In this document: positions 60,108-62,579 of the stretch, in pieces | Layout of the letters: each line of letters starts with the position of its first letter | Position numbering within the stretch: the first letter of the stretch is position 1 | Source of the DNA: a virus | Lineage: Duplodnaviria; Heunggongvirae; Uroviricota; Caudoviricetes | IMG/VR virus record: IMGVR_UViG_2721755651_000007 | Length of the DNA stretch: 64,000 nt | Strand: one strand, 5' to 3' | Program-made: the position numbers and the translations under genes | Notes under the pieces: generated by a model | Database searches by the model: none | Told to the model about the DNA's origin: nothing | What the model saw: the letters and a program-made list of their open reading frames with translations, nothing else

Positions 60108-62579
60108 ATGAGTAAAGTCTTTATTTGCGCCGCCATTCCGGACGAACAGGCAATAAAGGAAGAAGGTGCAGTCGCTGTAGCCACTGCCATTGAAGCCGGT
60201 GATGAACGTCGCGCCCGCGCAAAATTTCACTGGCAATTCCTGGAGCATTATCCGGCTGCTCAGGACTGCGCTTATAAATTTCTTGTTTGCGAGGATAAAC
60301 CCGGTATACCCCGCCCTGCCCTCGATTCCTGGGATGCTGAATATATGCAGGAAAACCGCTGGGATGAGGGGGCTGCTTCCTTTGTCCCGGTTGAGACTGA
60401 ATCCGATCCGATGAACGTCGCTTTTGACAAGCTGGCCCCTGAAGTACAGAACGCTGTCATGGTTAAGTTCGACACATGTGAAAACATCACCGTTGATATG
60501 GTGATTAGCGCGCAGGAATTGTTGCAGGAAGACATGGCAACATTCGACGGACATATCGTTGAAGCGTTGATGAAAATGCCAGAAGTTAACGCCATGTATC
60601 CGGAGCTTAAGCTGCATGCCATCGGGTGGGTTAAGCATAAATGTAAGCCTGGTGCCAAATGGCCCGAAATTCAGGCAGAAATGCGCATCTGGAAAAAACG
60701 TCGCGAAGGTGAACGCAAGGAAACCGGAAAATACACGTCTGTTGTTGATCTCGCCCGCGCCAGAGTCCACCGACAGCACACTGAAAACTCAGCAGAAAAA
60801 ATCCCCCCTGTCACTGCAGTCATTCGTCGCGAATATAAGCAGACATGGAAAACACTGGATGACGAACTGGCCTACGCTCTCTGGCCTGGTGATGTGGATG
60901 CCGGAAACATTGACGGCAGCATCCATCGCTGGGCAAAAAATGAAGTTATCGACAACGACCGCGAAGACTGGAAGCGTATCTCGGCATCAATGCGCAAACA
61001 GCCTGATGCCCTTCGCTACGACCGCCAGACTATTTTTGGCCTTGTCCGTGAACGTCCGATCGACATTCACAAAGACCCTGTGGCACTGAACAAATACATT
61101 ACTGAATACCTGACTACAAAGGGCGTGTTTGAAGATGAAGGAACAAATCAGAGCGCAACTGACACTCTCTCGTCGCCAGTACCAGAAACTGATGCAGTGG
61201 AAACGGCAATTCCGGACAACGAAAAAACCGAATGCAAAGTGGAAGTCGAACCATCTGTAGAGCGTGAGGGGCCGTTCTACTTCCTCTTCACCGACAAGGA
61301 TGGCGAAAAATACGGTCGCGCAAACAAACTTTCTGGTCTGGATAAGGCGCTGGCTGCCGGGGCTACTGAAATCACAAAAGAAGAATATTTTGCCCGAAAA
61401 AATGGCACATACACAGGCTTACCGCAAAATGCAAATACCGCACAAAATTCTGAACAACCAGAACCGGTAAAAGTTACCGCTGACGAAGTAAAGAAAATTA
61501 TGCAGGCAGCCAATATCAGCCAGCCTGACGCCAATCAGTTGCTCGCCGCATCACGTGGTGAATTTGTTGCAGGGATTAGCGACCCGAATGATCCGAAATG
61601 GGTGAAGGGGATTGAAACCCGCGATTCTGTGAACCAGAACCAGCAAGAAACGGAACAGAACGACCAGAAAGCGGAACAAAACAGCCCAAATACGCAACAA
61701 AACGAGCCAGAAACGAAACAACCTGAGCCAGTAGCGCAACAGGAACCGGAAAAAGTCTGCACCGCCTGCGGTCAGACCGGCGGCGGCAACTGCCCTGATT
61801 GTGGCGCGGTGATGGGCGACGCAACATACCAGGAAACATTCGATGAAGAGTATCAGGTTGAAGTTCAGGAAGATGATCCGGAGGAAATGGAAGGCGCTGA
61901 ACATCCACACAAGGAGAACACTGACGGCAATCAGCATCACGATAGCGATAATGAAACTGGCGAGACGGCAGATCACTCAATTAAGGTGAACGGTCATCAA
62001 GAAATCACATCCACCAGCAGGACGTGTGACCATCTAATGATCGACCTTGAAACCATGGGAAAAAATCCTGATGCCCCGATCATCTCAATAGGTGCAATAT
62101 TTTTCGATCCGCAAACCGGAGATATGGGACCGGAATTTAGTAAGACTATCGATCTGGAAACTGCTGGCGGGGTCATTGATCGGGACACCATTAAATGGTG
62201 GCTTAAGCAATCACGCGAAGCGCAATCTGCCATTATGACCGATGAAATCCCGTTAGATGATGCACTATTACAATTGCGGGAATTTATCGACGAAAACTCC
62301 GGTGAATTTTTTGTTCAGGTCTGGGGAAATGGAGCCAACTTCGACAACACGATTTTGCGCCGTTCATACGAACGGCAGGGGATCCCCTGCCCGTGGCGTT
62401 ACTACAACGATCGCGATGTACGCACAATCGTTGAGCTGGGGAAAGCCATAGACTTCGATGCCAGAACGGCTATTCCATTCGAAGGTGAGCGCCATAATGC
62501 ACTTGATGACGCCCGTTACCAGGCAAAATACGTTTCAGTTATCTGGCAAAAACTGATCCCGAATCAGGCTGATTTTTAA
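60108..62579 (+). CDS. large exonuclease-like protein with zinc-ribbon and C-terminal DnaQ-like (DEDDh) 3'-5' exonuclease domain
   Basis: 823 aa; [16 protein letters not shown]; C-terminal DLETMG...[12 protein letters not shown]...HNALDDARY. Confidence 0.55.
   Translation: [823 protein letters not shown]

Follow-up and report, generated by a model that had tools for sequence, protein, structure and literature searches.

What does a prophage gene do when it sits in the place of recE and is built partly on RecE, but ends in a nuclease of another family and has no annealing protein encoded beside it? This question is raised by the gene at positions 60108..62579 (+ strand, ATG start, stop codon included) of the virus record IMGVR_UViG_2721755651_000007, whose 64,000 nucleotides were analysed as a whole and are called the window below. 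The window is colinear with NZ_CP018241.1 and represents a segment of an Escherichia coli O157-type chromosome with two lambdoid prophages, A and B, the second of which carries the gene. The product of 823 amino acids (aa), already described by an earlier note on this DNA, is given alike by the open reading frame (ORF) and by RefSeq, where WP_000048551.1, named 'exonuclease', has identical coordinates, and the match to PHROG 2082 spans residues 1-823 of the 823.

As judged from its sequence, the exonuclease is a RecE-family mosaic in which the RecE nuclease has been replaced by a DexA-like domain. Its most likely role, proposed here tentatively, is that of a lytic-phase exonuclease acting on DNA 3' ends, tethered by a RecE-type scaffold and providing a Tritos-type Rec module with its single nuclease. 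Modules of the Tritos class possess a nuclease, lack a strand-annealing protein (SAP) and an anti-RecBCD function, and are accompanied by many Chi sites (PMC12315714, Table 1).

The C-terminal nuclease domain

The C-terminal DEDDh exonuclease domain (aa 641-820; 62028..62567, +) matches the Pfam family PF16473 (Rv2179c-like) at aa 642-813, with an E-value of 2.4e-67 and a score of 226.5 bits, the cut-off being 27, covering positions 2-177 of the 177 in the profile. Its five catalytic residues, D645, E647, D746, H796 and D801, align with D7, E9, D119, H186 and D191 of T4 DexA, in columns that are invariant with the stand-alone homologues included, thus confirming the DnaQ-like 3'-5' exonuclease fold that the earlier note had placed at this end of the protein. 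DEDDh-only homologues begin at about aa 641 of the exonuclease. The closest solved relative is DexA (PDB 8KEL/8KEN; phmmer E 1.4e-6). Likewise, a profile of the stand-alone homologues finds DexA with an E-value of 5.5e-22 over DexA residues 1-196, followed by a DnaQ (4e-5) and by oligoribonucleases (about 1e-3 to 3e-3), and the family profile did not recover Rv2179c itself at E <= 0.1. Searches of the protein in Pfam, NCBIfam and PDB gave no match to lambda Exo/YqaJ, and no match to the PD-(D/E)XK nuclease of RecE (PF12684/DUF3799) was found at E <= 1. Consequently, an identity as a lambda Exo or RecE-type nuclease was rejected, in agreement with the earlier note.

Taken together, the matches lean towards a DNA 3'-5' exonuclease, with DNA favoured over RNA as the predicted substrate. 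That the enzyme instead trims the 3' ends of RNA, such as transcripts, small RNAs (sRNAs) like DicF or the genomes of RNA phages, is clearly improbable, even though PF16473 is named after an exoribonuclease, NCBI calls many members of the family '3'-5' exoribonuclease', ISG20-like DEDDh enzymes restrict RNA phages and the gene lies within the dicF operon. The weak profile matches to oligoribonucleases (E about 3e-3) point in the same direction, but the same profile favours DexA and DnaQ over the RNases, Rv2179c is not found, and the fusion partners and sister architectures of the domain are all DNA-recombination modules.

Only two close relatives of the domain have been characterised, T4 DexA and EcD, an E. 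coli DexA homologue ('HREX') which degrades DNA containing 5-hydroxymethylcytosine (5hmC) and protects against T4 (PMC12153337). The exonuclease resembles them in the DEDDh fold, in the alignment of all its catalytic residues with those of DexA and in keeping D718 at the position of DexA D90, a tetramer residue whose loss is said to restrict activity to modified DNA (PMC12153337); close to it, P715 replaces DexA S87. Meanwhile, it lacks the extra loops of DexA, with which it shares about 26% identity, and it forms the C-terminal domain of an 823-aa protein, compared to a stand-alone enzyme of 180-230 aa. In addition, W152 and D169, reported as the residues by which DexA recognises 5hmC (PMC12153337), correspond to Y766 and T787 in the exonuclease, within an alignment of only that identity, while the stand-alone enterobacterial homologues retain the W and D of this pocket. 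The exonuclease would thus be similar to DexA and EcD in catalysis, but without the signature for 5hmC targeting described in PMC12153337.

This resemblance leads to the main rival explanation, an antiphage exclusion nuclease of the DexA/HREX kind, which would digest the DNA of superinfecting phages, e.g., with modified cytosines, and in which the scaffold would act as a sensor or targeting device. It is considered rather unlikely. Besides the function of EcD and the rank of DexA as the top solved match, it finds a precedent in the TONDOs, DEDDh exonucleases with auxiliary domains that act in phage defence (PMC13344964), while the change of both 5hmC-recognition residues argues against it, as does the search with PADLOC, in which no model matched the exonuclease, so that membership of a defence system was rejected.

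The scavenging of host DNA is given as the classical role of DexA in PMC12153337. A corresponding host-takeover or counter-defence nuclease would either salvage host DNA during the lytic phase, as DexA does in T4, or remove nucleic-acid intermediates of defences or of RecBCD-independent repair. The early-operon position of the gene is consistent with such a role, as is the occurrence of stand-alone DEDDh homologues in 639 phage records, from many virulent and temperate phages. These PF16473-only exonucleases of about 188 aa (e.g., the mEp460_4F5 gene and the 'DnaQ-like' Rec-module nucleases of PMC12315714), whose nuclease domain is 45-60% identical, are likewise located near the int end of early-left operons, but are devoid of the RecE-type scaffold, the ribbon and the linkers. 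Nonetheless, the probability of this role is low, as the locus indicates no specific defence target and a large RecE-type scaffold would be unnecessary for bulk scavenging. Moreover, to our knowledge, lambdoid phages are not known for degradation of the host chromosome.

The RecE-type scaffold and its C-terminal partners

Upstream of the nuclease, the protein is related to RecE. Residues 474-621, including four cysteines, are 74% identical to residues 471-611 of the RecE of Rac-SA53, and the homology ends at aa 621, while aa 136-543 align with the RecE of SPN3UB and aa 136-367 with that of Gifsy-1/2. The view that the protein is not of RecE type, as held by the earlier note, is therefore right for the nuclease domain but wrong for the rest. 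The NCBIfam RecE model NF007259 matches only aa 452-625, through model positions 445-602 of 877, and its score of 278.7 bits is below the equivalog cut-off of 1269. In the Pfam scan, PF06630 (Exonuc_VIII), which is present in Rac, in SPN3UB and in the prophage A pseudogene, is absent from the exonuclease, and PF12684 is found in the RecE of Rac-SA53 and SPN3UB. Since the exonuclease scores below the cut-off and possesses neither PF06630 nor PF12684, full RecE membership was rejected, and the term RecE-family mosaic was retained.

For the domain anatomy, an AlphaFold2 (AF2) model of aa 1-450 was made with 40 diverse homologues, as a single full-length alignment was unfit for structure prediction, the Rad52-like tails of some relatives being misaligned onto the DEDDh domain. 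The model contains four confident domains, D1-D4, with low-confidence linkers between them, and fold searches with it returned nothing informative. Selection was assessed from 76 distinct alleles of the same length through the ratio of nonsynonymous to synonymous substitution (dN/dS), summed over pairs without regard to phylogeny or recombination. The ratio is 0.24 for the whole gene, 0.08-0.20 in all folded modules, the linear motif and the Cys4 segment, and 0.8-1.0 in the predicted linkers.

D1 (aa 1-100; 60108..60407, +) is a small alpha/beta domain forming the variable head of the scaffold, in place of which classical RecE has PF06630. The helical D2 (aa 105-205; 60420..60722, +), with an AF2 predicted local distance difference test score (pLDDT) of about 90 and a dN/dS of 0.12, is common to RecE proteins of the Gifsy/SPN3UB type, and the tblastn/blastp matches to Gifsy-1/2 and SPN3UB begin at aa 136. 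D3, also helical (aa 245-340; 60840..61127, +; pLDDT 83-90; dN/dS 0.20), is 36-43% identical to many RecE-annotated phage proteins and aligns with almost every protein so annotated. D4 (aa 385-435, with the confident part of the AF2 model at aa 388-432; 61260..61412, +; pLDDT 82-90; dN/dS 0.075) is a small beta-hairpin/helix domain with the residues ERxGPFY...GRANK...EEYxARK, whose invariant columns among 40 sequences include R386, G388, P389, F390, Y391, G403, R404, N406 and K407.

Beyond D4, a linear motif of 27 residues (aa 474-500; 61527..61607, +) has a dN/dS of 0.12, compared to 0.3-0.9 in its flanks. Within the middle region, nothing else can be aligned with SPN3UB RecE, P0134, P0126 and others, the flanks being unalignable, and the motif occurs as well in Rad52-tailed relatives; its appearance suggests a short linear interaction motif. 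A Q/N-rich stretch then leads to the Cys4 'zinc ribbon' segment (61749..61832, +; dN/dS 0.14), where C551, C554, C562 and C565 (CTAC-x7-CPDC) make up the central CxxC...CxxC reported earlier. The nine representative homologues spanning this segment, with identities as low as 58% and Rac RecE among them, all keep the four cysteines, as do 78 of 80 related IMG/VR loci, and the segment presumably binds a metal. It is followed by a DE-rich acidic linker (aa 576-640; 61833..62027, +; dN/dS 0.87), which, like the other interdomain linkers, is probably disordered, and finally by the DEDDh domain (dN/dS 0.17).

The ORF is intact in 80 of the 80 IMG/VR loci and the catalytic motifs in 79-80 of them. 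Along with the low dN/dS of the folded modules, this suggests that the protein is functional and has a beads-on-a-string build. It is scarcely credible that the gene is a decaying, functionless remnant, a chance fusion carried in defective prophages, despite the defects of prophage B (frameshifted portal and J) and the presence of only a pseudogene in K-12. Such decay already appears contradicted by the selection data, as each folded module is constrained; besides the intact ORFs, the same 823-aa architecture recurs in a Citrobacter phage with a much diverged nuclease, and sequenced, inducible phages carry the gene.

The combinations in which these modules occur were surveyed by a search of 1.84 billion representative proteins. 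The PF06630 head is joined to a PD-(D/E)XK nuclease in classical RecE and to a DEDDh domain in P0123, P0136, P0122 and phage vB_EcoS-640R1. The scaffold of the exonuclease type, in turn, carries a PD-(D/E)XK nuclease (DUF3799) in P0141; a DEDDh domain in the exonuclease of the window and in the 823-aa protein of Citrobacter phage Chris1, whose nuclease is only 56% identical; and a tail of about 270 aa in ZF40 gp07, BUCT708 and many Enterobacter/Klebsiella proteins. The consensus of this tail has a Rad52-like signature, with a Pfam Rad52_Rad22 match just under threshold, and its homologues in phages bear the annotation of RAD52-like annealing proteins; in terms of predicted fold, the tail comprises a Rad52-fold annealase-like domain and then a coiled coil. 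Thus, one scaffold bears either a nuclease, of the 5' or the 3' kind, or an annealase, with the junction in the acidic linker.

Compared to the RecE of Rac and of Gifsy/SPN3UB, the exonuclease occupies the same slot, as the last large early-left gene before xis-int, and has a similar linker-rich, multi-domain N-terminal and middle region, in which D2-D3 are homologous. The differences are the lack of the PD-(D/E)XK nuclease, of the PF06630 head and of a downstream recT, as well as the predicted polarity of the nuclease, which is opposite (3'-5' versus 5'-3'). The 'RecE-2' proteins (ZF40 gp07, BUCT708 and P0138-type), reported with an unknown role in a survey of lambdoid phages (PMC12315714), share D1-D4 and the linear motif at 24-44% identity and the same operon position, differing at the C-terminus, where they have the Rad52-fold annealase-like domain and coiled coil in place of the nuclease found here. 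This distribution weighs against an exclusion nuclease, as the scaffold is common to recombination proteins, both RecE and the Rad52-fold fusions, and not to known defence sensors.

Full-length RecE, including its N-terminal region, enhances linear-linear recombination, and the function of the N-terminal domain is unknown (review PMC11611040). One broader idea, considered quite unlikely, is that the RecE-family scaffold (D1-D4, the motif and, in some members, Cys4) serves generally to deliver exchangeable DNA-end effectors to a single shared site, the DEDDh version then providing a recombination or end-processing route, free of a phage annealase, that works with the host RecBCD-Chi system or tunes it.

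Operon context and the proposed role

The position of the gene, directly before xis-int, is the exo/recE position as the earlier note had it. A DicA/CI-type repressor is encoded at 57178..57585 (+; Pfam HTH_3 and Phage_CI_repr; RefSeq), followed by a diverged DicF sRNA (59415..59464, +; Rfam RF00039, 43.5 bits compared to a gathering score of 48, E 7.4e-8) upstream of dicB (59639-59827, +; Pfam DicB, E 1.7e-37), and by a ydfD-like DUF1482 gene (59824-60015, +; Pfam E 3.7e-25) directly upstream of the exonuclease gene. Directly downstream are an excisionase gene (62644-62892, +; Pfam Exc) and a lambda-type integrase gene (62870-64000, +; Pfam Arm-DNA-bind_1 and Phage_integrase). Prophage B is located at ompW, which adjoins int in matching genomes. 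The order cI - ydfC - dicF - dicB - ydfD - exo - xis - int is shared with Tritos, mEp460_ev081, vB_EcoS-640R1 and K-12 Qin. In a consensus scan directly upstream, which is a weak test, a promoter or terminator belonging to the exonuclease gene itself scored no better than shuffles. A terminal location in an early operon under repressor control, lacking a promoter above chance, is atypical for defence genes expressed in the lysogen and is another point against an exclusion nuclease.

Regarding partners of the nuclease, the early-left ORFs at 57849-60015, all of at most 135 aa, gave no PHROGs/Pfam match to a single-strand annealing protein (SSAP), Gam or a single-stranded DNA-binding protein (SSB), and no RecBCD inhibitor was recognised among them by the same means. 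No annealase, SSB or RecBCD inhibitor is present in the RefSeq annotation of the whole prophage. The 80 related IMG/VR loci likewise yielded no SSAP, Gam, SSB or RecBCD inhibitor, and neither RecT, nor a Rad52-like tail, nor a RecE nuclease was found within 6 kilobases in them; their upstream same-strand ORFs of at least 150 aa are mostly CI-type repressors, with a few others and none annealase-like. The lack of a recT/bet-like annealase nearby, first noticed by the earlier reader of the sequence, is thus upheld. In Rac-SA53 and SPN3UB, recT follows recE.

The window contains 18 Chi sites (GCTGGTGG), compared to 2.9 expected from shuffles. The sites in prophage B are located at 43723, 47916, 47922, 48715, 48736, 49053, 50478, 62011 and 62600, six of them on the - strand (43723, 47916, 48736, 49053, 62011 and 62600) and three on the + strand. 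As assigned from the gene order, the - strand is the Chi orientation active for a RecBCD enzyme that enters at the right cos end, and four - strand sites lie within about 8 kilobases of the terminase end. The Chi sites at 62011-62018 and 62600-62607 lie on either side of the DEDDh-coding end of the exonuclease gene.

The module is similar to those of the Tritos class in having a nuclease and lacking SAP, SSB and anti-RecBCD functions, and Tritos itself carries the same gene and neighbours. It differs in that the copy studied here belongs to a defective O157 prophage and in its Chi sites, of which six are active and three inactive, below the published range of 21/6 to 7/2. DnaQ-like nucleases have been reported in lambdoid Rec modules (PMC12315714).

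The tentatively preferred role, a tethered 3'-end DNA exonuclease of the lytic phase, would then proceed as follows. The exonuclease would be made when the DicA/CI-type repressor is lifted, by induction or infection, and the scaffold would guide the nuclease either to a DNA end or to a partner, from host or phage, common to the whole family, where the DEDDh domain would remove nucleotides from DNA 3' ends. By this tethered trimming, the protein would act as the single nuclease of a Tritos-type module, which may rely otherwise on the host RecBCD-Chi system and RecA and not on single-strand annealing in the manner of RecET.

Several points weigh against this role. According to PMC12315714, 3'-5' exonucleases usually inhibit homologous recombination rather than promote it, and DnaQ-type genes next to int may not be true members of Rec modules. 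The presumed substrate, DNA and not RNA, is read off solely from DexA being the nearest solved homologue, and the promoter scan, as stated, has little power. We know of no pathway with a 3'-5' resection nuclease but without an annealase. Moreover, the gene is intact in defective prophages and in most E. coli genomes, which fits a host-beneficial role (e.g., defence) as well as a phage role, and to this extent favours the exclusion nuclease.

Prophage copies, prevalence and significance

Of 5426 complete E. coli genomes, 3533 contain at least 80% of the exonuclease gene, the median number of places being two among genomes that have any, and the 90%-identity cluster of the protein has more than 23,000 member sequences. 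Sequenced phages carrying it are Tritos, with 93.9% nucleotide identity, mEp460_ev081, HannyBb, PhiR42_1, Evi and the PPompW/Stx2a phages. Over its first 256 aa, the protein shares 93% identity with ydfE of K-12 Qin, a pseudogene interrupted by IS2E, indicating that the exonuclease gene is the intact form of a ydfE-type gene. Furthermore, two additional Pfam families, PF27430 and PF27432, are already listed on the protein in a large protein database. No functional study of ydfE was found in the literature searched on ydfE/ydfD/dicB, and literature searches on Rv2179c with prophage and on ydfE with Qin and exonuclease returned nothing. The gene is therefore an already catalogued and very common E. 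coli prophage gene, among the commonest, and not the unusual one for which it had been taken; as a sequence finding it is ordinary, its kind having been described in the 2025 literature (PMC12315714).

Opposite the 5' part of the gene, an antisense ORF of 243 aa is located at 60048-60779 (-), and further long antisense ORFs occur within 61551-61980; none of these is in the RefSeq annotation. They are most likely by-products of the composition of the coding strand.

The counterpart in prophage A is a truncated RecE-family gene at 13153-14397 (+; annotated pseudogene 13153-13954, RefSeq 'RecE family exodeoxyribonuclease, incomplete'). The truncation agrees with the earlier description, although the gene is not unrelated to the exonuclease, as had been claimed, because in addition to a PF06630 N-terminus (E 1.6e-34) it shares a 120-aa D3-like module with it (35% identity, E 2e-14). 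In this region (13153-14930), the 3' part of the RecE-family gene and the 5' part of the integrase gene are missing, both genes being RefSeq pseudogenes, which suggests that one deletion took the 3' end of recE, any intervening DNA and the 5' end of int. Insertion sequence (IS) elements (IS256 fragments and ISEc8) follow, and the DicF of prophage A, at 12461-12512 (+), is canonical, with 75 bits.

In prophage B, the late genes (about 23250-34000, -) include a frameshifted portal gene, a frameshifted gpJ gene and a truncated gene for minor tail protein L, as annotated by RefSeq on the identical sequence. Consequently, this prophage is probably defective, and its exonuclease gene is nevertheless intact. 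The window also carries cargo and small RNAs typical of O157 prophages, namely the paa adhesin gene, two transfer RNA genes and the sRNAs STnc100 and AgvB (Rfam, RefSeq), and hok/sok loci are found in both prophages (Rfam, RefSeq). The coordinates of the cargo and small RNAs are 52487-53245 (-), 46911-47180, 47293-47522, 52149-52298 and 3764-3938.

Roughly two in three complete E. coli genomes thus carry the exonuclease gene, frequently in several copies, as do inducible lambdoid and Stx-associated phages. The most useful by-products of its study are the three alternative effectors found on a RecE scaffold and the finding that the nuclease-less 'RecE-2' relatives end in a predicted Rad52-fold annealase. 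If an exclusion nuclease of the DexA/HREX kind were the true explanation, it would be among the most widespread prophage-borne defences of E. coli. If the comparative picture is right, a RecE scaffold with three effectors would offer a way into the role of the N-terminal two thirds of RecE, which is also relevant to RecET recombineering, as well as a handle on DNA-end processing in the annealase-less, Chi-rich lambdoid phages.

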